Shown: positions 9,431 to 62,100 of the stretch, piece by piece
Position numbering within the stretch: position 1 is the stretch's first letter
Layout of the letters: each line of letters begins with the position of its first letter
DNA from: Clostridia bacterium
GTDB lineage: Bacteria > Bacillota > Clostridia > TANB77 > CAG-508
NCBI GenBank assembly: GCA_017430135.1
Contig: JAFRNM010000004.1
Coordinates: 5,499-69,498, forward strand
DNA length: 64,000 nt
Direction: 5' to 3'
Position numbers and translations under genes: made by a program
The notes under the pieces: model-generated
The model's input: the letters and a program-made list of their open reading frames with translations, nothing else
What the model was told of the DNA's origin: nothing
The model's database searches: none

Positions 9431-9528
9431 CCCGACTTTTTAGCGACTTTTTGGGACACTCTTAAAAATCAAGGTTATTTTGAATTTTAAGAGTGTCCCA
9501 AAAAGTCTTGAATTTTAAGAGTGTCCCA
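9431..9528. repeat. REP-like cluster (1 forward + 2 reverse units) between divergent promoters
   Basis: cgactttttagcgactttttgggacactcttaaaaatcaagg ... gaattttaagagtgtccc (x2). Confidence 0.9.
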
Positions 9529-9574
9529 AAAGTCAAAAGTTACATAAAAAGTTAATGAAATTTCACGAAAAAGG

Positions 9575-19159: not shown

Positions 19160-19228
19160 AACTTTTTGGGACACTCTTAAAATTCAAGGTTGAATTTTAA
19201 GAGTGTCCCAAAAATCAAGAGTATCCCC
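19160..19228. repeat. REP-like cluster (forward + reverse + degenerate unit)
   Basis: ctttttgggacactcttaaaattcaagg ttgaattttaagagtgtccc ... caagagtatcccc. Confidence 0.9.
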
Positions 19229-36195: not shown

Positions 36196-36255
36196 ACTTT
36201 TTGGGACACTCTTAAAAATCAAGGATGGAATTTTGGGACACTCTTAAAAAGTTTG
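36196..36255. repeat. REP-like cluster (2 forward units) upstream of tatD
   Basis: ctttttgggacactcttaaaaatcaagg ... ttttgggacactcttaaaaagtttg. Confidence 0.9.
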
Positions 36256-37056: not shown

Positions 37057-37186
37057 CTTTTTTGGCGACTTTTTGGGACACTCTTAAAAATCAAAACTTT
37101 TTGGGACACTCTTGATTTTCAAGGGTGTCCCAAAAAGTCTCCCCAAAAGTCATCCTTGATTTTTAAGAGTGTCCCAAAAAGTTTGT
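37030..37186. repeat. REP-like cluster (4-5 units in both orientations) overlapping the tatD 3' end
   Basis: cgactttttggactcttggga tgacttttttgg cgactttttgggacactcttaaaaatcaaaactttttgggacactcttgattttcaagggtgtccc ... ccttgatttttaagagtgtcccaaaaagtttg. Confidence 0.9.
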
Positions 37187-39220: not shown

Positions 39221-39295
39221 TTTTTTTGGGGGGAAACTTTTTAAGAGTGTCCCAAAATTCCAGCCTTGATTTTTAAGAGTGTCCCAAAAAGTTTG
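39221..39295. repeat. REP-like cluster (2 reverse units) upstream of the AI-2E transporter gene
   Basis: ctttttaagagtgtcccaaaattccagccttgatttttaagagtgtcccaaaaagtttg. Confidence 0.9.
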
Positions 39296-44613: not shown

Positions 44614-44846
44614 AGATAAGATATTTATGGTTGTAAATTTTTGAAAACAACCAATTCAATTTATTATATTCAATTAAAGTATTTTAAAAAGAGGAATTAT
44701 TTGTAGAAAACTATAGCAGAAATTAAATGTCAGAGCAGTCATTTAAAAGTAACTAAAAGAGCTACAAAATAAGAAGGACTTTTTAAGATATTGTACCGAA
44801 TAGGTAATTTAAAATCTGCTTAAAATATTTTTAAGGAGTGATTTTT

Positions 44847-47800
44847 TTGAAACTAAAAGACATCAATTTTGAAAAGACAACAAGAAAGAATTTCGCAAAA
44901 GTTGGCGATTACATCGAAATGCCAAATCTTATCAAAGTACAAAAAGATTCATATGACTGGTTTGTAGAAGAAGGCTTAGGAGAAGTATTAAAAGATATTT
45001 CACCAATAGAAGACTATTCTGGAAACCTTGTTTTAGAGTTCTTTGATTACTATATGGAGGACAAAACAAAATATACTCTTGAAGAATCAAAAGAAAGAGA
45101 CGCAACATATGCAACAAGATTACATGTAAAAGTAAGATTAATAAACCGTGAAACAGGCGAAATTAAAGAGCAAGAAATCTATTTAGGAGATTTCCCACTA
45201 ATGACAGATAGTGGAACATTCGTAATTAACGGGGCAGAAAGAGTTGTAGTAAGCCAATTAGTACGTTCACCTGGATGCTACTATGCAGAAGAATTTGATA
45301 CAAAAACAGGAAAAAGAACATACACATCTACAGTAATGCCACTAAGAGGAGCATGGATAGAATACGAAACAGACGGAAACGACATATTCTATGTACGTGT
45401 AGATAGAACAAGAAAAATCCCTGTAACATTACTATTAAGAGCAATTGGAATAATTTCAGATGACCAAATAAGAGACCTATTTGGAGATGAAGAATTATTA
45501 AACACAACAATAGCCAAAGACACAATAAAAGACCAAGACGAAGCTTTAATAGAAATCTACAAAAAATTAAGACCTGGAGAATTACCAACAGCAGAAGCAG
45601 CAAGAACATTATTCAATGGATTATTCTTCGATAACAGAAGATATGACCTAGCAAAAGTTGGAAGATTCAAATTCAACCAAAAACTAGCAATAGCTGGAAG
45701 AATTACAGACAAAGTAGCTGCAAAAGATATTATAGATCCTGAAACAGGCGAAGTATTTGTAACAGCTGGAGAAACAATCACTGAAGAAATAGCAGAAAAC
45801 ATACAAAACGCAGGAATAAATGTAGTAGATATTACATATAACGATAGAACAATAAGAGTAATAGGAAATGGAACAGTAAATATCCACAAAGTATTACCAA
45901 ATGTGGATTTAAGCAAACTACATTTCAAAGAATTAGTAAATTACTCAGCATTAAAAAATATAATGGACAACACATCTGAAAAAGATTTAGTAAAAACATT
46001 AAAAGAAAGATATGACGAATTAGTACCAAAAACAGTAACAACAGAAGACATTATCGCATCTGTAAACTTCCTATTAAACCTATCACATGGATTAGGAAAA
46101 CCAGACGACATAGACCACTTATCAAATCGTAGAATTCGTTGTGTTGGAGAACTTTTACAAAATCAATTCAGAATTGGTTTAGCAAGACTTGAAAGAGTTG
46201 TAAGAGAAAGAATGACAATCCAAGACTTAGATGTTGTAACACCACAAACATTAATCAATACAAAACCAATAACATCAGCAATAAGAGAATTCTTTGGAAG
46301 CTCACAACTTTCACAATTCATGGATCAAACAAACCCACTTTCAGAATTAACACATAAAAGAAGAATTTCAGCATTAGGACCTGGAGGATTAACAAGAGAA
46401 AGAGCAGGTTTTGAGGTTCGTGACGTTCACTATACACACTATGGTAGATTATGCCCAATAGAATCTCCAGAAGGACCAAACATTGGATTAATCTCAGCAT
46501 TATCATCATTTGCAAGCATAAACGAATATGGATTTATCGAAACACCATATAGAAAAATAGATCCAGAAACACATAGAGCAACAGATACAGTAGAATACAT
46601 GAGCGCAGATGTAGAAGACAACTACATAATAGCTCAAGCATCTGAGCCAATGGATGAAAATGGAGAATTTTTAAATGACAGAATAAGAGTTAGATACAAA
46701 AATGAAGTAATAGAAGTTGACAAAGAAAAAGTTCAATACATAGATGTATCTCCAAAACAACTTGTATCAGTAGCTGCTGCCATGATACCATTCTTAGAGC
46801 ACGATGACGCAAAAAGAGCTCTAATGGGATCAAACATGCAACGTCAAGCAGTTCCACTATTGATATCAGAAAGCCCAATAGTTGGAACAGGAATAGAATA
46901 CAGAGCTGCAAAAGACTCTGGAATCTTAGTTCTAGCTGAAGATGATGGAGAAATAGTAAAAGTATCAGCTGACGAAATAAAAGTAAAATATAAAAACGGA
47001 AAAACAATTTCACACAAACTTCGTAAATTCAAGAGAACAAATGGTGGAACATGTATAAACCAAAGACCAATAGTTAAAAAAGGTGAAATAGTTAAAAAAG
47101 GCCAAACAATAGCAGATGGACCAGCAACAAAAGATGGAGAAATGGCTTTAGGTAAAAACGTATTAGTAGCATTCTCAACATGGGAAGGTTACAACTACGA
47201 GGACGCTATCCTAATCAACGAAAAATTGGTAAAAGAAGATGTGTTCACATCAATTCACATTGAAGAATACGACTGCGAATGCCGTGATACAAAACTTGGA
47301 CCAGAAGAAATTACAAGAGATATTCCAAACGTTGGAGATGACCAATTAAAAGACTTAGACGAAAATGGAATAATCAGAATAGGTGCAGAAGTAAGACCTG
47401 GAGATATCTTAGTTGGAAAAGTTACTCCAAAAGGAGAAACAGAACTAACAGCTGAAGAAAGATTATTAAGAGCTATCTTTGGTGAAAAAGCTAGGGAAGT
47501 AAGAGATACATCACTTAGAGTACCACATGGAGAAGCTGGAACAATAGTAGATGTAAAAATCTTCACAAGAGATAATTCAGACGAATTAGCACCTGGAGTA
47601 AACCAAGTAATTAGATGCTATATAGCAACAAAAAGAAAAATCTCAGTTGGAGATAAAATGGCAGGTCGTCACGGAAACAAAGGTGTTATTTCAAGAGTAT
47701 TACCAGAAGAAGACATGCCATTCATGCCAGACGGAACACCAGTAGATATCTTATTAAACCCACTTGGAGTACCTTCACGTATGAACCTTGGACAAATCCT

Positions 47801-48599
47801 AGAAGTTCACTTAGGTGGAGCTGCAAAAGCACTTGGATGGAAAATCTCAACACCAGTTTTCGATGGTGCAACAGAGGAAGACGTTAGAGAAGTGTTAAAA
47901 CAAGCAGGAATGAGCGAAGATGGTAAAACAATTCTATATGATGGTAGAACTGGAGAACCATTCGATAAGCCAATTACAGTTGGTATAATGTACATGTTAA
48001 AACTACACCACTTAGTAGATGACAAAATCCATGCTCGTTCAACTGGACCATACTCATTAGTTACACAACAACCTCTTGGAGGTAAAGCACAATTCGGTGG
48101 ACAACGTTTCGGAGAGATGGAAGTTTGGGCATTAGAGGCTTATGGTGCAGCATACACACTACAAGAAATGTTAACAGTTAAATCAGACGATGTTGTAGGA
48201 AGAGTAAAAACTTACGAAGCAATCGTAAAAGGTGAAAATATTCCAGAACCAGGAATTCCAGAAGGATTCAAAGTTCTAGTAAAAGAACTTCAATCATTAG
48301 GACTAGACATCAGACTATATTCACATGACAATCAAGAACTTGAAATAAAAGAAAACATCGAAGATGGAATCGAATACGATCCAGAAAGAGATAAAAAACT
48401 TTTAGAAGAAGAAGCAATCGGAGACGAAGAGCTTCCAGACGGATATAGTGAAGAAGGCGAAATGTTATTAGATGATGAAGATGACGAAGAAGATAGCGAT
48501 GAGCTATTTGAAGACTTAGGGGACGAAGGAGAAGAAGATATTTTTGATAATGATTTAGCTAATGACAATCTTGATAATGACGATGATATAATTGAATAA
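44847..48599 (+). CDS. rpoB: DNA-directed RNA polymerase subunit beta
   Basis: About 1250 aa, unmistakably RpoB. TTG start 8 nt after AAGGAG. About 70-aa acidic D/E-rich C-terminal tail. Confidence 0.97.
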
Positions 48600-48863
48600 T
48601 AATAACTGAAATATATGAATTTTCAAACCCTTGGTGTCGCAATTTCCAGATTTTAAAATTACTAGTCTGTAAATTGCTCCAGTCGCCCTGCGCTTCGCTA
48701 CGGTTGGTCGCTTACGCGGGTATTGAAAATTAATATATTTCAGACCTTATAATTGAATATACTTCATATAAAAAAATGATTGACGGAAAAGTTTGCAAGA
48801 GCGGTGGCTAAATCATTTATAAAAATGGAGTAACCCAAAAAAATAAAATTAGGGGGAAAAAAC

Positions 48864-51800
48864 GTGGACGAAAACGAAATTTTTGATAAATTAAAAATAG
48901 GAATCGCATCAGATGAGCAAATAAGAGAATGGTCAAAAGGTGAAGTAAAAAAACCAGAGACAATTAATTATAGAACTCTTAAACCAGAAAAAGATGGTTT
49001 ATTCTGTGAAAAAATATTTGGACCAACAAAAGACTGGGAATGCCATTGTGGTAAATATAAAAGAGTAAGATATAAAGGAATAGTTTGCGATAGATGTGGT
49101 GTAGAAGTAACAAAATCTAAAGTAAGAAGAGAAAGAATGGGGCACATTGAATTAGCAGCTCCAGTAGCACACATTTGGTATTTCAAAGGAATACCAAGCA
49201 GAATAGCACTAATGCTGGACATCTCTCCAAGAGATTTGGAAAAAGTAATATACTTTGCATCTTACATAGTAACAGACAAAGGAACATCAGGATTAGAACA
49301 ATGCCAAATCTTAACAGAAAAAGAATATCACGAAGCTGTTGAAAAATATGGTAGAGGGTCATTCAAAGCAAGAATGGGTGCAGAAGCATTAAGAGAATTA
49401 CTAGAAAAAATAGACATTGACAAATTATATGAACAACTAAGAAAAGAAATAGAAAAATCATCAGAACAAAAAAGACTAAAACTAGTAAAAAGACTTGACA
49501 CAGTAGAATCATTTAGAGCATCTGGAAACAGACCAGAATGGATGGTAATGAATGTAATTCCAGTAATACCACCAGATTTAAGACCAATGGTACAATTAGA
49601 TGGTGGAAGATTTGCAACATCAGACTTAAACGACTTATATAGAAGAGTTATAAACAGAAATAACAGATTAAAAAGATTACTAGAATTGGGAGCACCAGAA
49701 ATAATTGTAAGAAATGAAAAAAGAATGTTACAAGAATCTGTAGATGCCCTAATAGATAATGGAAGAAGAGGAAAACCAGTAACAGGAGCTGGAAACAGAC
49801 CTTTAAAATCATTATCAGACATGTTAAAAGGAAAACAAGGTAGATTCCGTCAAAACTTACTAGGAAAGCGTGTTGACTACTCTGGACGTTCAGTTATCGT
49901 AGTTGGACCAGAACTAAAATTATATCAATGCGGACTTCCAAAAGAAATGGCTGTTGAATTATTCAAACCATTTGTAATGAGAGAATTAGTAGGAAGAGGA
50001 ATTGCCCAAAACATCAAAAATGCAAAAAGAATGGTAGAAAGATTAAGACCAGAAGTATGGGAAATATTAGAGGATGTTATAAAAGACCACCCTGTAATGT
50101 TAAACCGTGCTCCAACACTACACAGACTTGGTATTCAAGCATTTGAACCAGTTCTAGTAGAAGGTAGAGCAATAAAACTTCACCCACTTGTTTGTGAAGC
50201 CTTCAATGCCGACTTCGACGGTGACCAAATGGCAGTTCACTTACCACTATCTCCAGAAGCACAAGCAGAAGCAAGATACTTAATGCTTGCAACAAACAAC
50301 TTACTAAAACCACAAGATGGTAAACCAGTTGCAACACCAAGACTTGACATGATTTTAGGAAGTTACTACCTAACAATGGTACTAGATGGTGAAAAGGGAG
50401 AAGGAATGTACTTCAAAGACCCAGATGAAGCTATAATGGCACACGAAAACCACGAAGTATCAACACATGCTAAAATATTCGTAAGAATAGAAAAAGAAAT
50501 AAATGGCGAATTAAAACATGGAAAAATCGAAACAAGCGTAGGAAGAATTATCTTCAACCAAGGAATTCCACAAGATTTAGGATATATCAATAGAGAAGAA
50601 GATCCATTCCAATACGAAATCAATTTCCCAGTTATGAAAAAATCAATGGGAGATATAATCGAAAGAGTAATTAGAACACATGGCTTAACAGAATCAGCAG
50701 AAGTAATAGACTATATCAAAGCCCTAGGATACAAATACTCTACTGTTGCAGGTATTACATACTCAATGGACGACGTAAAAGTGCCAGCTAAAAAGAAAGA
50801 ATTATTAGCAGAAGCAGACAAGAAAATCGAAACAATTCGTAAACAATATGCAAGAGGTTTAATAACAGACAATGAAAGATATATTGCAACAATTAATGTT
50901 TGGGAACAAACAACAAAAGATGTTTCTAAGGCCATGGAAGATAACTTCGACGACCTAAACCCAGTTTACATGATGGTTAAATCAGGTGCCCGTGGTAACA
51001 TGAACCAATTACGTCAAATCGCTGGTATGCGTGGACTTATGGCAAGTACAACAGGTAAAGCGGTAGAAATACCAATCAAATCATCATTTGCTGAAGGTCT
51101 AGATGCCCTAGAATACTTCATTTCAACACACGGTGCTAGAAAGGGACTTTCAGATACAGCTCTAAGAACAGCCGATTCAGGATACCTAACAAGAAGACTT
51201 GTAGACGTTTCACAAGACATAATTGTTAGAGAACATGATTGTGGAACAGACGACGGAATTATCATTTATGATATTAAAGACGGAAACCAAATAATTGAAA
51301 AAATGCATGAAAGACTACTTGGAAGATTCTCAGTAGAAGATGTAGTTAATCCAACAACTGGTGAACTAATTGTGGATAACAACACAATGATTAACGATGA
51401 AATTGCAGATAAAATTATAGATGCAGGAATCGAAAAATTAAAAGTTCGTTCAGCATTAGGATGTAGAACAAAACATGGTGTTTGTCAAAAATGCTATGGT
51501 ATGGGATTAGCAAGAAGAAGCCTAGTTTCAATAGGAGAAGCAGTTGGTATAATTGCAGCTCAATCAATAGGAGAGCCAGGTACACAGCTTACAATGAGAA
51601 CTATCCACTCTGGTGGTGTAGCAGGTGTAGCAGATATTACACAAGGTCTTCCTAGAGTTGAAGAATTATTCGAAGCTAGAAAACCAAAGGGATTAGCAAT
51701 AATTACTGAAATCGATGGAAAAGTAAAAATCAAAGAATCAAAGAAGAAGAAAGAAGTTGTTGTAACATCAGATGATGATGCAAGAACATACACAATACCA

Positions 51801-52439
51801 TTTGGTTCAAAAATGAAAGTTAAAAACGGAGATTTAGTAGAAGCTGGAGATCCACTTATCGAAGGATCAATAAATCCAAATGACATCCTTGCAGTAAAAG
51901 GAGCAGAAGGAGTTTACGAATACCTAATCTCAGAAGTACAAAAAGTATATAGAAACCAAGGTGTTGATATAAACGACAAACACATCGAAGTAATTGGTAG
52001 ACAAATGCTTAAGAAAGTAAAAGTTGGAGACAACGGAGATACAACATTACCAGCTGGAGCTTTAGTAGACATGTACGACTATGAAGAAGCAAACAAGAAA
52101 GCAGAAGAATTAGGTGTAAGAAAAGCAGACGGAAAACGTGTACTACTAGGAATAACAAAAGCATCACTTGCAACAGACAGCTTCTTATCAGCAGCATCAT
52201 TCCAAGAAACAACAAGAGTTCTAACAGATGCAGCAATAAAAGGAAAAGAAGACGACCTACTAGGATTAAAAGAAAATGTTATCATAGGTAAACTAATCCC
52301 AGCAGGAACAGGAATGCAAGTATACCAAAACACAAAAATAAATACAGAGCAAGATGAAGAAGAAACAAACTCAGAAGACATTCAAGAAAAAGCAGAAAAA
52401 ATAAGAGAAACAGAAACAGTAGAAACAGCAGAAGAATAA
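48864..52439 (+). CDS. rpoC: DNA-directed RNA polymerase subunit beta'
   Basis: 1191 aa. GTG start after AGGGGG. Zn-finger CHCGKYK..CDRCG and catalytic NADFDGD. Confidence 0.97.
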
Positions 52440-52484: not shown

Positions 52485-52575
52485 TTTTGGGATGGAATTT
52501 TGGGACACTCTTAAAAATCCAGACTTTTTGGGACACTCTTAAAATTCTAAACTTTTTAAGAGTGTCCCAAAAAGT
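52485..52575. repeat. REP-like cluster (2 forward + 1 reverse unit) between the rpoC terminator and the TA/RAYT islet
   Basis: gggacactcttaaaaatcc ... ctttttgggacactcttaaaattc ... ctttttaagagtgtcccaaaaagtt. Confidence 0.9.
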
Positions 52576-52759: not shown

Positions 52760-53017
52760 ATGGAATTAGCAAGAGTAACTACAAAAGGACAGATAACAAT
52801 TCCAAAATCAATTAGAGAAATGTTAAACATAAAGGAAGGAAGTCAAATAATATTTCTTCAAAAAGGAAATGACATAATAATAAAAAATTCAGCTATGATA
52901 GCTTTAGAAAAAATACAAGATGCATTTGAGGGAGAAGCGGAAAGATTAGGATTAGAAAACGAAGAAGATGTAGTAAAGATGATAAAGGAATTTAGGAAGA
53001 GCAGAAAGAAGGAATAA
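52760..53017 (+). CDS. AbrB/MazE/SpoVT-family antitoxin
   Basis: 85 aa. Contains VTTKGQITIPKSIREMLNIKEGSQI, a SpoVT/AbrB swapped-hairpin domain. The stop abuts the PIN gene start. Confidence 0.7.
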   Translation: MELARVTTKGQITIPKSIREMLNIKEGSQIIFLQKGNDIIIKNSAMIALEKIQDAFEGEAERLGLENEEDVVKMIKEFRKSRKKE

Positions 53018-53018
53018 C

Positions 53019-53420
53019 ATGAAAGTAATGCTAGACACTAATATTCTAATATCAGCATTTATTTTTAAAAGTAATAAAATGAATAATTTAATTTATGAAT
53101 TATCAAAAAAACATGAAATTGTTATATGTTCATACACGATAGAAGAATTAAAGGAATTATTTGAAAATAAATTTAATGTTAGTCTAAAAACATTAAATTT
53201 ATTTTTGAAAAATTTTCCTTTTACATTGGTAAAATCACCTAATAATCCACAAGAAAATCTTTTCAATATTCGAGATAAAGATGATTATATAATATTATAT
53301 ACTGCGATAGTTGAAAATGTGGATGTTTTTATAACGGGAGATAAAGATTTTGATGATGTTGAAATTAAAAAACTGGAAATTTTAAAACCTTCAGAATTTA
53401 TTCAGAAATATTTAAATTAG
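53019..53420 (+). CDS. PIN-domain (VapC-like) toxin
   Basis: 133 aa. Starts MKVMLDTNILISA with later acidic residues, consistent with a PIN nuclease. Sits 2 nt after the antitoxin. Confidence 0.65.
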   Translation: MKVMLDTNILISAFIFKSNKMNNLIYELSKKHEIVICSYTIEELKELFENKFNVSLKTLNLFLKNFPFTLVKSPNNPQENLFNIRDKDDYIILYTAIVENVDVFITGDKDFDDVEIKKLEILKPSEFIQKYLN

Positions 53421-53500: not shown

Positions 53501-54262
53501 ATGCCTAGAATAGCGAGAAAAAGTATAGAAACGCCATTTTTGCATGTAATGGTTCAAGGCGTGAATAAGGAATATATCTTTAACAATGATGAATATATAA
53601 AGATGTATTTAGAATTAATTGAAAAAAATAAAGTTGAATATGATGTCACAATACTGGCGTATTGCGTAATGAATAATCACGCGCATTTTTTAATGTATAT
53701 AGAAGATAAGGAAAAATTTGGTAAATTCATGCATCAAATTAATTTTAAGTATGCCAAAATGTATAATAAGATTGAGAAACGATGTGGAGTTTTGTTCAGA
53801 AACAGATATCAATCTGAACAAATATGTGATAGAAAATATTTGATTAATTGCATAAAATACATACATGAAAATCCTGTAAAGGCGGGAATAGTTAGGGACG
53901 CAGGGGATTTTAAATATTCTTCATATAATAATTATATAAATAATGTTGGTGAATGTCAGAGTCCAATTATGAAAGAAATTTTTGGAGAAAATTGCGATTA
54001 CCAGAAAATCTTCAAAAAAGTTCAAGATATGAGATTTATGGATAATGAAAAAAAACGAGATGATTTAGAATATTACATGAAAGCGGCTATAAATGAATTT
54101 ATGGTTATAAATAAAGTAGATCTTGTTGACATATTTGCAGATAGAAAGATTTTGAAATTGATGATAAGAGATTTAAAGAAAAAATACAATTATAGTTATG
54201 CGGAAATTTGTGAATTCTTCGAAATAACAAAAAGCAGGTTGGAGAGTTTAAAAAAAATTTAA
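53501..54262 (+). CDS. IS200-like Y1 HUH transposase, REP-associated tyrosine transposase (RAYT)-like, with a C-terminal extension
   Basis: 253 aa. HuH motif NNHAHFLM and a C-terminal catalytic-Tyr motif IKYIHENPVKAG (YIxNP). No IS ends or tnpB. Flanked by REP-like repeat clusters (52485-52575 upstream, 54266-54340 four nt downstream). The last ~100 aa are extra and possibly an HTH. Confidence 0.65.
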   Translation: MPRIARKSIETPFLHVMVQGVNKEYIFNNDEYIKMYLELIEKNKVEYDVTILAYCVMNNHAHFLMYIEDKEKFGKFMHQINFKYAKMYNKIEKRCGVLFRNRYQSEQICDRKYLINCIKYIHENPVKAGIVRDAGDFKYSSYNNYINNVGECQSPIMKEIFGENCDYQKIFKKVQDMRFMDNEKKRDDLEYYMKAAINEFMVINKVDLVDIFADRKILKLMIRDLKKKYNYSYAEICEFFEITKSRLESLKKI

Positions 54263-54265
54263 TAT

Positions 54266-54340
54266 TGAATTTTAAGAGTGTCCCAAAAATCAATTTAACC
54301 TTGAATTTTAAGAGTGTCCCCAAAATCATCCCAAAAATCA
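54266..54340. repeat. REP-like cluster (2 reverse units) 4 nt downstream of the RAYT stop
   Basis: tgaattttaagagtgtccc ... ccttgaattttaagagtgtcccc aaaatcatcccaaaaatcaa. Confidence 0.9.
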
Positions 54341-55778: not shown

Positions 55779-55815
55779 ACAACTCAAAAGCTACGCAAGT
55801 ACAAATTGCGTAGCT
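55779..55815 (+). terminator. Terminator after the DUF4143 ATPase gene
   Basis: aaaagctacgcaagtacaaattgcgtagcttttcc. The stem resembles those at 21118 and 63557. Confidence 0.75.
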
Positions 55816-55832
55816 TTTCCTTTTTGAAAAAA

Positions 55833-55860
55833 CTTGATTTTTAAGAGTGTCCCAAAAAGT
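55833..55860. repeat. Single REP-like unit (reverse)
   Basis: cttgatttttaagagtgtcccaaaaagtttg. Confidence 0.85.
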
Positions 55861-56030
55861 TTGTTACAAAAATGTAAAATAAAAATAATTTAATTGCAAA
55901 AAACGACAAAAAATAGCTTCCCTAGTTGGATAGAGGGCAATCCCCCAAAGTGGCAAAAACCGGTATTGATTTTATATATATAAGTAAGTAAAATAGGACT
56001 TGAATTATACTTTAATAAAAGCAAAAGGCA

Positions 56031-56100
56031 ACCTTGAATTTTAAGAGTGTCCCCAAAAGTTAAAGGCAACCTTGAATTTTAAGAGTGTCCCAAAAAGTTT
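56031..56100. repeat. REP-like tandem pair (2 reverse units) upstream of the giant surface protein gene
   Basis: caaccttgaattttaagagtgtcccc aaaagttaaagg caaccttgaattttaagagtgtcccaaaaagtttg. Confidence 0.9.
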
Positions 56101-56130: not shown

Positions 56131-59100
56131 ATGAAATTGCCAAATTGTTTGAAGAATTTGAATTCTAGGAAGGGAAACGAAAAGGGTAGTGTTACTTTGT
56201 TCGTTCTTATTGCGATGCTATTTTTCCTTATGATTGGTATGATGATTTTTATTATCAACATGAATACTGAAACTTCGCAAAAAAGAGATGTGGAGAAGAT
56301 TAAAAGTGAATATAACGCAAACACAAGCGAAACAGACCTAGATCAATTATACCAAGAAGCTAAACAACGTCAAATAGGCACTTTTATGATTAAGTTAATA
56401 GACAAGTATGGCACAATTTATAACAGTGGCGAGTGGGTTAATGAAAAATGGCTAGCAGAAGGCAGATTACCATTAACAGTGCAACCAAACTTTCCAGAAG
56501 GTTTGAAAGATATTAGTGTTACGGTAAAAGACGATACATATGGTGGTTCTACTATTATAACAAAAACAGCAGACTTAGCTACAATGGAAATTAGAGCTGA
56601 TAAGGATTGCCAATACACAATAGAAAACACTTTAGATAATACAAATCAAGTAAAAATTAACATAGATACAACAAAGCCAACAATTGATGAACTAAAAGGT
56701 GGAACAATTTGGAAAGGAACAGAGGAAGAAGAAATTACTGGAACAGACGCAGGTGGAACAGTAACTATAACAGCAAGAGATAACTTAAGTGGAGTAAAAG
56801 AATTAAAATATATAATAAATAATAGTCCGGAAGCTCCATCAGCAGATGCTGAGTGGACAACAGTAGAAGGAGCAACAGCACAAGTTACAATAAATAATGA
56901 AAATGATTTAGGAGTATACTACATTCATGCAATGGCAACAGATGTTGCAGGAAATGTAAGAGATGTAGTAACATCAGGACCATATGAGGTAAAACAAGCA
57001 AATTACAAAATTACAACAACAACAGGTACAACATATTCAGAAACATTAAAAGACGCAGCAGAAAAACCAGGAGCAATGGTAATAAAAGTATTAAATACAT
57101 TTACAGATGAAGTACCTGCAACAATAGCACAAAATGTAACAATAGACACAAATGGTAAAACATTAACAATGGCAGAAACAATAACAGTAGCAGGTGGTGC
57201 AACAACAACATTTGTAGGTACAGGAACAATACAAAGAAATGTAGCAGATGGAGTTAGAGGAGATTTAATAACAAATAATGGAACAGTTGTAGTTGGTGTT
57301 GAAAATTCAGACAATGGGCCAACATTAACATCAAAAGATGTTGTTATTAATAATGGTACTGTAACAGTTTATAGTGGGAATATAGCATCTCAAGGACAAT
57401 CCGTTTTTGCTCCTAATGCAGGTATTTATAGTAAAACTATAAATGTTTATGGGGGAAATATTACAAATGATAGTGGCGCTTATGGAATAGTTATTAATCT
57501 TGCTGGAATATGTAATATAACAGGAGGAAGAATAACAGGAAACAAAGCAATTTGCCCTCAAAATGGAACTTTGAATATAAGTGGTTCAGCTACAATAGAA
57601 GGAAATGCCGCAATAGGTAGTTCTGCTAGTACGAACCATAATTATACATTAAATATAAGTGGAGGTGTAATTAGATCAACAAGTAGATTTGCAATAAATG
57701 CAGATACACCAGAAACCAATATTACAATAACAGGTGGAACTATAACAGGTGCAACAGATGGTATTAGTATTACAGGCGCAAACAGTACATTAACAATAGG
57801 AGACAACACAAATGCTCTAAATAGAGAGTCACCAGTAATTACAGGAACAAATGGAAAAGGAATAAACATAGCAGGTGCAACATCTACATTAAATTATTAT
57901 GACGGAACAATAATAGGAAAAACAAAAGGAACAAAAACATTTAATGGAAGAGAAGTAGCATTCAATGTAGCAAACGACACAACTGTAAACTTCCTAACAG
58001 AAACAGAAGAAGGAAATGTAACAAGATATTACAGACCATATACAAGAGAAAATACACAAACACATTTATTTGAAACAGTATTAGAAAAACAAGTAAATGT
58101 AACATTTAATCCAGGCGAAGGAGCAACAGTTGCAGAAAGCAATAGAAATGTATTGACAAATGTGGAATACAAAGAAAAAGCAGAAGATGCAACAATAGTA
58201 TCATTACCAACACCAGAAAAAACAGGGTATACATTTAAAGGATGGAATGGAAAAAACTTGTTGAACTTGGCAGGAAGAACTGAACAATATATTGGAGCTT
58301 GGTCAAATACAGCTAAGAGAAACTTTACAGGTAATGGAATTTATAAAGGATTAGCATCTAATAATTACTATATTCAAACAAATGCAAGTTATGAAATTAA
58401 CGAAAACACTAATACGGTTAAGGTTACAAGCTATAATGATGGATATGGTGTGGGATTTGATGTAAGAGTTAAGCCAGATACTCAATATACGTTAAATAAT
58501 TCTGATAATAATGTTAGAGCAGCATTATATAAATTTGATGGAACGTTTACTAAAAGTGTTACAGGAAGCTTTACAACGACACAAGATACATATTGGTTAG
58601 TTATAGTTGTAATTTCAAATAAAGGTATAGAAAACATAGCTTCTAACATCCAACTAGAACAAGGCTCAACAGCCACACCATACGAACCATACTACATCAC
58701 GGACGAAACAAAAGTAGTCCAAGACCAAGACCACACATTAAATGCAATATGGGAAGCAAATGAATACACAGTACACTTCAATGGAGATGGTTCAACAGCA
58801 GGAACAGTAGAAGACCAAAAATTCAAATACGACGAAGAAAAAGCATTAAATGAAAATAAATTTGAAAGAAAATACACAGTAACATATGACGGAAACGAAG
58901 GAACATCAGCAAAAACAGATGATACAGCAACATACACATTTGCAAACTGGATAAATAAAACAAATAACTTAACATACCAAGACAAAGCAGTAGTTAAAAA
59001 CCTTACATCAGAGCCAAATGGCGAAGTAACACTATACGCAGTATGGACACCACATGAAGTAACATTACCAACAGCAACAAGAGAAGGATACATCTTCAAT

Positions 59101-62100
59101 GGTTGGTACGATGCAAAAACAGGCGGAAACAAAATAGGAAATGCAGGAGACAAATACATCCCAGAAGCAAACACAGAACTACATGCACAATGGAGACAAG
59201 TGCATTACACAGTTTCAGTAGGAGAAGAAACTCTTCCAGCTGAAACTCTAGCAGAAGCAGTAGGACTTGCAGAAGAGAGAATAACAGGGGCAGTAACAAC
59301 TGCAACAATTACGCCAACAATGAGTTATGCAGATAGCTCAACAGCAACAATAAGTAAAAACATAACATTAGATTTAAAGGGTAATACACTAACGATGTCA
59401 AACACAATAACAAATAAAGGAACATTAGAAATAAAAGATACAGCAACAGGTGGAACAATAACAAGAGCAGGAGATGTTATTACAAATAATGCAAGTACTT
59501 CTATAGTAACAGTAAAAAGTGGATCAATAACTGCAACAAATGGAATTGCTATAAAAAATAATTCAACTGGTACTATAAATGTAAGTGGCGGAACAATATC
59601 AGGAGGAAATGGAATTTACAATAATGCAAATGGTACAATAAATGTTAGTGGAGCAACTACATCAATTACAGGAACAACAGACCAAGGTATTAGAGGACTC
59701 TCAGGAAATGTTACTGTATCAGATGGAACAATAACAGGGGCAACAAATGGAATTGCTGTTAGAAATGATGCAAATAATAATTCAGGTTCAATTATAATAA
59801 CAGGTGGAACAATAACAGGAAATCAATATGGTCTATATGCAACTGGAAATGCAACAATTACATTAGGAAATAATGATGGAACTGTAAGTAAGATATCACC
59901 AGAAATAATATCAAATGCAACAAGTTCTCATGCAGGTGTATATACAGACGGTAATACAACATTTAATTTCTATGACGGTAAAGTAGTTGCAAGAGATGGT
60001 TGGTCATTGAATACAGTCAATTTAAACAAACCAGACCATTATCAAGTAGTTAAGAGAACAGACAATGGCAAAGAAACTGCAGTTCTTGAAAAAGAAATTA
60101 CAGTAACATTTGAACCAAACCCAGGCAATACAACAGGTGGAACAGTTTCAGAAGCATCAAGAAAAGTATTAACAAATGTAGAATATCAATACGATGCAGC
60201 TGCTGGAACAAACAGAACATTGCCAACACCAACAAAAACAGGGTATACATTTAAAGGATGGCAACCAGCTGACAATCTAATTTCAACAAATCCAAGTGAT
60301 TGGCAACAAGGTGGACTTGCTGATGTAAATGGAGTAGAGGGTGACAGAACAACAAGAATAAGAACAGATTATATAAGAGTTTCTCCAAATACGAAATATA
60401 AACTTAGTGTTAATAATTCAAATGGTATATTTATAAGATATGTATGGTTTTATAATAATGAAAAGTCATATATTGATAAAATTGAAGAGCATCATATAAA
60501 TAATACGGAATTTACTACGCCAAATGATTGCTATTATATTAGAACAGTTTTACAATATAATAATATTAATGGTGAAACTGATATTACTCCAAGCAATGTT
60601 ACAGATGCCAATATTTATTTAACAGAAACAGTAACTGATTCAACAATTGTTACACAAGACCAAGACCACACTTTAAATGCAGTATGGGAAGCAAACCCAT
60701 ATACAGTAACATTAAATGCGGGAGATAATGGAACAATAGATGCAGGAGATGACGGCTGGGCAAGAGCTGGAGATAACAAAACAGCAACAAAAGACATAAC
60801 TTACGATAGTAATTATGGAACATTACCAACAGCATCAAGAACAGGTTACACATTTGAGGGATGGTTCACTGAGGCAACAGGTGGAACTCAAATAACAGAC
60901 ACAACAAAAATGCAAACAGCAAGTGCTCAAACACTTTATCCACATTGGACAGCAAACAACTACACAGTAACAGCCAACGCAAATGGTGGAGCAATAGCTT
61001 CAACAACAGGTTGGTCAGGTACAGGAGAGTCAGCAATAAAACAAGTTACTTATGATAGCGCTTATGGTACATTACCAGAAGTAACAAAAACAGGGTATAC
61101 ATTCAAGGGATGGAATGGAAAGAATTTGTTTGAGTTAAAAGAAAATGTTGATTGGAAATTGGGAGCGACAACATACAATGTAAATACATCGGAAAATAGT
61201 ATAAGTATTGATACTAAAGGTGGCTGGGGACTTGTGCAATATTATTTACCAGTATTAAAGGCAAACACAACATATACAATAAGTGGAAATGTTGAATTAA
61301 TTAATCATACTTCTACATATGTAAGAATTTCAAAGGAAAGAAACAAACAGAATGGCAATATATTTATCTTCCGAAATGATACATTAAGTGATGGATATTT
61401 TAGTTCAACGTTTACAATTGGCGAAAATGATGAAACAACAGCAAGTCTATGCTTATATGGAAACCTAGGTTCTAATGAAGAAACTGGGGCAATATTCAGC
61501 AACATCCAAATCGAAGAAGGCTCTACAGCCACACCATACGAACCATACTACATCACAGAAGATACAAAAGTAACAACAGCATCAGACCACACATTAAAAG
61601 CAGTATGGGAAACAATACCTTATACAATTTCTTATGAATTGAATAAAGGTACAAATAATAGTAGTAACCCAACTGGTTACACAGTAGAAAGTGAAAACAT
61701 TACATTACAAAATCCAACAAGAAATGGTTATACATTTATTGGATGGACAGGAAGTAATGGTGATACACCACAAACTACTGTTACAATTCCAAAAGGTAGC
61801 ACAGGAAATAGAACATACACAGCAAATTGGGAAGAAAAAACTTATACATTGACAATTAAGCCAAATGGAGGTGCAGTAGATGGTTCTACAACAGATGTTG
61901 TAAGGAACTTAAAGTATTCTGATGTTTCTAACATAAATGACCCTACTAGAACAGGTTATTTATTTGGCGGATATAATGAGTTGAGTGGAGCTGCCTTTAG
62001 TAATGAATTAGCAAGTATAACAAGATATTCTAACTCAAATCTAACACAAATTACAATTGCACGACAAGAAAAAAGTGCAGATAACCCAATTTCTGGTATG

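Follow-up and report, generated by a model that had tools for sequence, protein, structure and literature searches.

A probable MITE-like family of structured palindromic repeats, with one copy between rpoB and rpoC in an uncultured Clostridia bacterium

The spacer between rpoB and rpoC in the window (the whole 64,000-nt stretch of Clostridia bacterium DNA analysed) holds one copy of a dispersed, structured, non-coding repeat family. Compared with close relatives, this copy has been inserted and does not belong to the conserved make-up of the rpoB-rpoC locus. Comparisons among copies and among relatives demonstrate family membership, mobility, and a structure with covariation. It seems likely that the family is a previously undescribed, MITE-like one of small non-coding palindromic interspersed repeats, and that this copy entered rpoB-rpoC recently. 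An odd feature of an essential operon would thereby be explained as a mobile passenger rather than a regulator. A repeat family, with a working covariance model (R1), is also defined for poorly known rumen and gut bacteria, where it breaks metagenome assemblies and marks strain-level differences.

Results

The rpoB and rpoC ORFs, typed by NCBIfam, are separated by 264 nt, which is unusually long compared with the 11, 15, 20, 113, and 187 nt at related loci. As the first-pass annotation had described, this long spacer contains 18-nt inverted repeats, an internal hairpin, and a GC-rich core. GC content peaks at 0.53 at 48670-48729, with 0.2-0.45 in the surroundings. The features of the region are as follows.

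44838-48599, + strand: rpoB (NCBIfam), upstream neighbour, its stop codon within the extended left arm
48587-48598, + strand: left copy of a perfect 12-nt direct repeat, TATAATTGAATA (last rpoB codons and first two stop-codon bases)
48606-48743, + strand: the element, 138 nt between inverted-arm ends (inverted repeats; model R1, 163.9 bits, E = 1e-30)
48606-48630, + strand: left arm, 5' strand of closing stem P1, CTGAAATATATGAATTTTCAAACCC, pairing with 48718-48743
48630-48639, + strand: junction P1/P2, CTTGGTGTCG, near-invariant in 32 copies
48639-48677, + strand: P2 hairpin, GCAATTTCCAGA, loop, TCTGTAAATTGC (inverted repeat and covariation)
48678-48717, + strand: GC-rich conserved core including putative P3, TCCAGTCGCCCTGCGCTTCGCTACGGTTGGTCGCTTACGCG (copy alignment)
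48718-48743, + strand: right arm, 3' strand of P1, GGGTATTGAAAATTAATATATTTCAG (inverted-repeat search)
48748-48759, + strand: right copy of the direct repeat, TATAATTGAATA, resembling a target-site duplication
48760-48832, + strand: piece B, a second palindromic hairpin unrelated to the element family and common to relative L001 (inverted-repeat search)
48864-52439, + strand: rpoC, downstream neighbour, with its ribosome-binding site AGGGGGAAAAAAC intact

The arms are 25 nt long with one mismatch and one bulge, and include the 18-nt pair CTGAAATATATGAATTTT (48606-48623, as annotated earlier) and its inverse AAAATTAATATATTTCAG with one mismatch; the latter lies at 48726-48743, one base off the 48727-48744 given for it before. 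The 21-mer CTGAAATATATGAATTTTCAA occurs in the window at two sites only, both of them in the arms (expected 0.06). With mismatches allowed, the inverted repeat extends to 36 nt at 83% (48591-48626 and 48723-48758) and overlaps the rpoB stop codon; the R1 match spans 48598-48751. From the outside inwards, AT-only arms lead to an inner stem (TTTTCAA.CCC with GGG.TT.AAAA), then CTTGGTGTCG, and then P2, whose inner hairpin halves are at 48639-48650 and 48666-48677. After P2 come CTCCAG, the putative P3 (CAGTCG at 48680-48685 with CGGTTG at 48701-48706, with G-U and U-G pairs adjacent), its loop CCCTGCGCTTCGCTN, and CGCTTACGCGG. The architecture is thus a long AT-only closing stem P1, a three-way junction, the inner hairpins P2 and P3, and a GC-rich, conserved junction and loops. 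The fold has a predicted energy of -48.8 kcal/mol (z = -5.6 against shuffles), and either strand is far more stable than its shuffles.

Known RNA classes do not account for the element. ARAGORN found no tRNA or tmRNA, and Rfam 15 gave no match at the gathering score in the window, with only noise at E ≤ 10 for the window copy and two variant copies, so that the Rfam search proposed earlier turned up no known RNA. The earlier exclusion of both REP and tRNA is upheld. No terminator-like site was found within 48400-49000, and promoter-like matches there were at chance level. The only ATG ORF in the element has 13 codons and no ribosome-binding site; coding of a small peptide was rejected on this latter ground and because insert lengths vary between copies.

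The relatives compared, with rpoB homologues of 87-97% identity, were uncultured 'Clostridia bacterium' MAGs together with metagenome assemblies of gut and other origin. The element is missing from all eight of the related rpoB-rpoC loci.

L001 (97%): spacer of 113 nt, without the element
L002 (92%): spacer of 15 nt, without the element
L003 (88%): spacer of 187 nt of other sequence, without the element
L004 (97%): spacer of 11 nt, without the element
L005-L008 (91%): spacers of 20 nt, without the element

Only the 3' part of the window spacer, including the hairpin at 48760-48832, is common to L001, and the best alignment to that locus removes 48599-48759 (161 nt, one direct-repeat copy included). 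An identical 264-nt spacer is present in two other samples (L009 and L010), both with identical rpoC, so the element is not an assembly artefact; contigs encoding the identical rpoC number six on record, with spacers read in these two.

Other hairpins occupy the same spacer. Piece B forms a perfect 22-bp AT-rich stem in L001 (5243-5314, z = -5.4) and is degraded in the window; no further copies of it were found among the loci examined. The 187-nt spacer of L003 (5254-5440) has another long hairpin, with AAAAGTTT..CAAGAG..GCGGTGG in common with piece B. Hairpin elements seem to accumulate in the rpoB-rpoC spacer of this lineage. The acidic C-terminal tail of rpoB also differs in length among close relatives, at 1211-1259 aa for the protein (48400-48599 in the window and the 3' ends of L001-L008); L001 rpoB stops six codons early, and L004 has lost the end of the tail along with the entire spacer.

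A scan of one genome per species with a 20-mer from the core matched two other contigs, both of MAG RGIG8360 from water buffalo rumen. The ~110-nt core is present at both loci, one flanked by genes for polysaccharide synthesis and for a DegT aminotransferase, the other by a ROK gene and one for a class II aminoacyl-tRNA synthetase (named lysS here); the rpoB-rpoC spacer of the same MAG is only 11 nt. A metagenome scan with another core 18-mer gave 120 loci, about 90 of which were rejected as chance matches to the GC-rich 18-mer; filtering with blastn and the model kept about 30 copies on 29 loci, and 32 copies were aligned. The family is known from AT-rich, small-genome uncultured Clostridia in ruminant guts and other metagenome samples. 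No copies were found by blastn in phage and plasmid collections, and three viral-contig scans gave either zero matches or chance matches that the model rejected. A literature search for the core sequence found no paper containing it.

Copies are about 138-250 nt long and complete, with the same ends, and all full copies have arms of 24-30 nt or more; the consensus signature reads ...CCTTGGTGTCG-P2-CTCCAGTCGCCCTGCGCTTCGCTNCGGTTG..CGCTTACGCGG... They usually begin 0-20 nt from a stop codon and nearly fill short spacers within operons. Several contigs carry two copies within 4-14 kb, and density reaches one copy per 3-10 kb on some. Many copies lie at contig ends, as expected of a repeat that breaks assemblies. 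Relative to their neighbours, 10 well-flanked copies are co-oriented and 7 opposite (about 17:12 overall), and in the short subfamily, to which the window copy belongs, 12 copies share the orientation of the flanking genes and 2 do not, all by crude ORF calls. The copies do not share a promoter. In L072 (1914-2115), a family copy reduced to its right half adjoins a tRNA gene fragment.

Alignment under R1 showed 93.8% of cells paired across the 32 copies; shuffles gave 76.8% and slid partners 36-50%. With MAFFT, blind to structure, the figures for 12 copies were similar (95% paired against 82%, and 36-44% for slid partners). Changes on both sides were seen in 29 of the 41 predicted pairs, so that the check for covariation proposed in the first-pass annotation came out in favour of a structure. 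Of the 18 outer pairs of P1, 16 have double-sided changes, which could also arise by DNA-level copying between arms. P2 shows swaps from U-A to C-G (6 versus 6 copies) and from G-C to U-A; its insert varies from 12 to 70 nt among copies, with longer replacement hairpins in some subfamilies. P3 may carry a nested hairpin of about 52 nt and shows no covariation in any copy comparison, and the conservation of its region is partly ascertainment, the seed of the metagenome search lying inside it.

Conservation is concentrated inside the element. Junctions and loops vary least. Between copies, identity is 81-87% in core blocks that lie outside the search seed and 60-62% in the arms, and within single copies the arms pair 96% Watson-Crick. 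Counts of G-U versus A-C were 27:5 for P2, 57:1 for P3, and 4:5 for P1, so that the inner hairpins fold on one particular strand and P1 is a plain DNA-style palindrome.

Presence or absence of the element varies among genomes that are 93-97% identical in the flanking genes, and filled and empty alleles were found among close relatives at three loci: rpoB-rpoC, DegT, and ROK-lysS. In the window, the 12-nt direct repeats are set off from the arms by 7 and 4 nt rather than abutting them, and a target duplication of fixed length was not found at 20 copies. At the DegT site the empty allele has 26 nt and neither arm, and the filled allele 183 nt. At the ROK-lysS site (L144 empty, L140 filled), the empty allele reads TAA followed directly by CTAATATAATATAGCTTTTT, so that the right arm is already present straight after the stop codon. 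In the filled allele the sequence is TAA-CTATATA-GCTATATTATATTAG-(core)-CTAATATAATATAGCTTTTT, its left arm being an exact 15-nt inverted copy of the right arm. The direct repeat here is CTA only, or none; a deletion between two CTA triplets is the alternative to insertion at this site. In an 89% relative that site is occupied by another repeat, TTTAAGAGTGTCCC, and does not discriminate between the two. Insertion into a pre-existing palindrome was rejected, the empty sites L133 and L144 having none. The window copy and the L013 copy, at different loci, have arm sequence in common apart from two compensated changes at the tips, so that arms are at least partly inherited.

A GC-rich patch at 55916-55974 had been put forward as a second member of a family of small structured elements. 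Such a family is borne out by the dispersed copies; the patch offered as evidence for it is not part of it. The covariance model, with filters off and E ≤ 10, did not match the patch, though it gave the spacer copy 163.9 bits; the patch lacks every conserved block of the family as well as a flanking inverted repeat, and is less structured than its own shuffles (z = +2.0). Its resemblance to the 5' end of the element requires a 2-nt gap, and its local alignment score of 16 is equalled by 2.6% of all 59-nt windows in the same 64 kb. We therefore rejected the patch as a family member. The strings proposed as shared termini do exist, although GGTATTGA occurs in only 3 of the 32 family copies (the window, L011, and L012), and the 3' 'terminus' of the patch, TTGATT, coincides with the -35 hexamer of a promoter-like sequence (TTGATT, 17 nt, TAAAAT at 55966-55994) upstream of a giant, repeat-rich ORF of 2474 aa at 56131-63555.

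Discussion

The option of a miniature insertion element, listed in the first-pass annotation, agrees best with these results, the element belonging to a dispersed repeat family and being inserted relative to close relatives. Taking the features of MITEs from PMC10969869, the family is below 500 bp and non-coding, its terminal inverted repeats are within the range of about 4-30 bp, and its many dispersed copies differ in presence or absence between related genomes. As to target-site duplication, there is the 12-nt TATAATTGAATA in the window, CTA at ROK-lysS, and none that is consistent elsewhere. Against a MITE, the direct repeats have no fixed length, an autonomous partner with matching ends did not turn up in ~1 Mb of loci, the phage and plasmid collections, or viral contigs, the arms are less conserved than the core, which is the reverse of transposase-bound terminal repeats, and conserved junctions, covarying stems, and hairpins of variable length are the signature of a functional RNA.

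On the MITE-like reading, insertion into the rpoB-rpoC spacer would be a recent event in the lineage of this strain, immediately behind the rpoB stop codon. Propagation would need the single-stranded fold of one particular strand, as ssDNA or RNA, and such a need would account for covarying stems and conserved junctions alongside drifting arm sequence. In place, the element would be co-transcribed with rpoB and rpoC and fold into a 25-40-bp hairpin. By analogy with Correia elements, which are cut by RNase III (PMC2649163), this hairpin could be an RNase III substrate; RNase III is encoded by a close relative. The element is probably a passenger in the rpoBC operon; it probably affects rpoC little or not at all, given that close relatives lack it.

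Chief among the rivals is the idea that the copies are true genes for small structured RNAs (such as ribozymes, protein-binding RNAs, or guide-like RNAs belonging to a mobile system) that have spread; the conserved three-way junction core would then do the work, with P1 as a processing or closing stem. The compensatory changes in stems exceed shuffled and slid controls, as a structured RNA should; the junctions and loops are the best conserved positions, P2 and P3 have extensions of varying length, and their G-U pairs are strongly strand-specific. Diverged subfamilies within one genome (L012b and L086b) retain the same blocks, and the short subfamily is mostly co-oriented with its neighbours. 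However, a consistent orientation or an own promoter or terminator, which would also be expected of such RNAs, was not found: overall orientation is mixed, and the copies have no promoter in common. Presence and absence among genomes with 93-97% identical flanks, like the copy density and the broken assemblies, is the behaviour of selfish repeats. P1 is Watson-Crick only, without the G-U bias, as expected of DNA-level copying, and P3 lacks covariation. We consider RNA genes unlikely.

Tentatively, and with about the same low likelihood, the family might represent a new kind of mobile element, structured and strand-specific, or a new RNA class. Activity would then reside in the conserved three-way junction core, and every new insertion site would itself supply the sequence for the closing hairpin, as at ROK-lysS, where the empty allele has the right arm and the filled one gains just the core and the inverted 15-nt arm. 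This would imply inverted duplication of the target, or a choice of target by pairing with the element's own arm. A target-derived arm would explain arms that are copy-specific and purely Watson-Crick without a regular target-site duplication. Conserved junctions, covarying arms, a single folding strand, and an arm present at an empty site are all unusual for a MITE, and this unusual pattern of conservation makes the mode of spread and a possible RNA-level role testable.

Among known bacterial repeats, the Correia elements (CREE/nemis) of Neisseria are non-coding repeats of ~100-155 bp with terminal inverted repeats around a conserved core, dispersed intergenically and co-transcribed into long hairpins that are bound or cut by RNase III (PMC2649163, PMC10969869). 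The present element is likewise a small non-coding repeat with inverted arms around a conserved core, dispersed intergenically near genes. In Correia elements, which are unrelated to it in sequence, the 26-bp terminal repeats are conserved and a TA duplication is present. The arms of the present element differ between copies and covary, no fixed duplication was seen, and the core folds as a three-way junction in which G-U pairs are strand-specific.

The pneumococcal BOX, RUP, and SPRITE and enterobacterial ERIC sequences are small interspersed repeats that form stable stem-loops in transcripts, and BOX is modular with a varying number of modules (PMC3049150, PMC2229807). Such modules are not unlike the variable inserts in P2 and P3. 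There is no sequence relation to any of these repeats, which are defined by conserved sequence along their whole length. To our knowledge, covarying arms with a conserved junction core have not been described for them.

Likeness to a generic MITE lies in size, terminal repeat length, AT-rich intergenic placement, a predicted stable stem-loop transcript, many copies, and the absence of an ORF, as in QMITE2 of Coxiella, which has direct repeats of 7-9 bp, terminal repeats of 23-29 bp, and a core of 113-145 bp (PMC10969869). Unlike QMITE2, the present family has a GC-rich core and no regular direct repeats, no parent insertion sequence was found, and conservation is inverted, being higher in the core than in the arms.

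REP sequences and REPINs are non-autonomous hairpin repeats thought to move single-stranded via RAYT (Y1) proteins, for which the hairpin matters and not terminal-repeat sequence (PMC3116915, PMC3337134). The element resembles them in forming hairpins, and a RAYT-like gene is present in the window. REPINs, however, are pairs of REP units of about 20-40 nt, whereas here a 112-nt conserved core and arms form three helices, and the RAYT-like ORF is flanked by TTTAAGAGTGTCCC repeats and not by the element.

These comparisons bear on whether the element could be the scar of another mobile element, i.e., an insertion-sequence end, a prophage attachment site, or a REP cluster served by the RAYT-like gene. 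Such a scar is very improbable despite the Y1/RAYT-like ORF 4.7 kb downstream (53501-54262), since that ORF is flanked by a different repeat with 28 copies, the R1 score on those repeats is only palindrome-level (about 30 bits, on both strands), no RAYT homologue was found in the other family loci examined, the copies are complete (138-250 nt) with the same ends, and there were no phage, plasmid, or viral matches. The earlier suggestion of a recombination-site remnant is likewise unsupported: copies retain their full length and structure, and neither an integrase nor a prophage adjoins them. A role for the RAYT-like gene in serving the element was rejected, R1 seeing only generic palindromes at the TTTAAGAGTGTCCC repeats and no homologue of the gene occurring at the other family loci examined.

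Least probable of all is a locus-specific cis-regulator of rpoBC, be it an attenuator, a processing site, or an internal rpoC promoter: its position between rpoB and rpoC, the strong fold (z = -5.6), and a TTGAAA, 19 nt, TATAAT readable across the right arm and flank speak for it, but the spacing is outside the usual 16-18 nt, promoter-like matches are at chance level, there is no terminator-like site, and the element is missing from eight related rpoB-rpoC loci and recurs at unrelated ones in both orientations, which also tells against the attenuator or ncRNA of the rpoBC operon proposed in the first-pass annotation. The E. coli rplL-rpoB spacer contains an RNase III site and an attenuator, structured RNA inside the rpoBC transcription unit. 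The present element has such a placement in common with it; the E. coli feature lies in a different spacer and is conserved and locus-specific, in contrast to the recent insertion of a dispersed repeat here.

The window contains a second and far more abundant intergenic repeat, TTTAAGAGTGTCCC(A/C)AAA, present 28 times in 64 kb where 0.01 occurrences are expected. It is found in either orientation and frequently forms inverted pairs (such as the 55-nt arms, 98% alike, at 315-369 and 371-425), and it also fills the ROK-lysS spacer of relative L148. Its sites are at 315-425, 9449-9531, 19164-19213, 21198-21263, 36199-36248, 37071-37179, 39240-39289, 52498-52572, 54271-54324, 55840-56095, and 63822-63839, and the population looks like REP/REPIN. 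The Y1 transposase/RAYT-like ORF (53501-54262, + strand, 253 aa) scores 77.1 bits for NCBIfam REP_Tyr_transpos, for which the cutoff is 80; in L009 the identical gene carries a Pfam Y1_Tnp annotation. Its position between the TTTAAGAGTGTCCC clusters at 52498-52572 and 54271-54324 makes it the probable cognate mobiliser of these repeats. A pair of genes for an AbrB/MazE-type antitoxin (52760-53017, + strand) and a PIN-domain toxin (53019-53420, + strand) immediately follows rpoC and precedes this ORF. Two related bidirectional terminator-like hairpins, AAAAGCTACGC...GCGTAGCTTTT, are found at 55786-55818 and 21109-21154.
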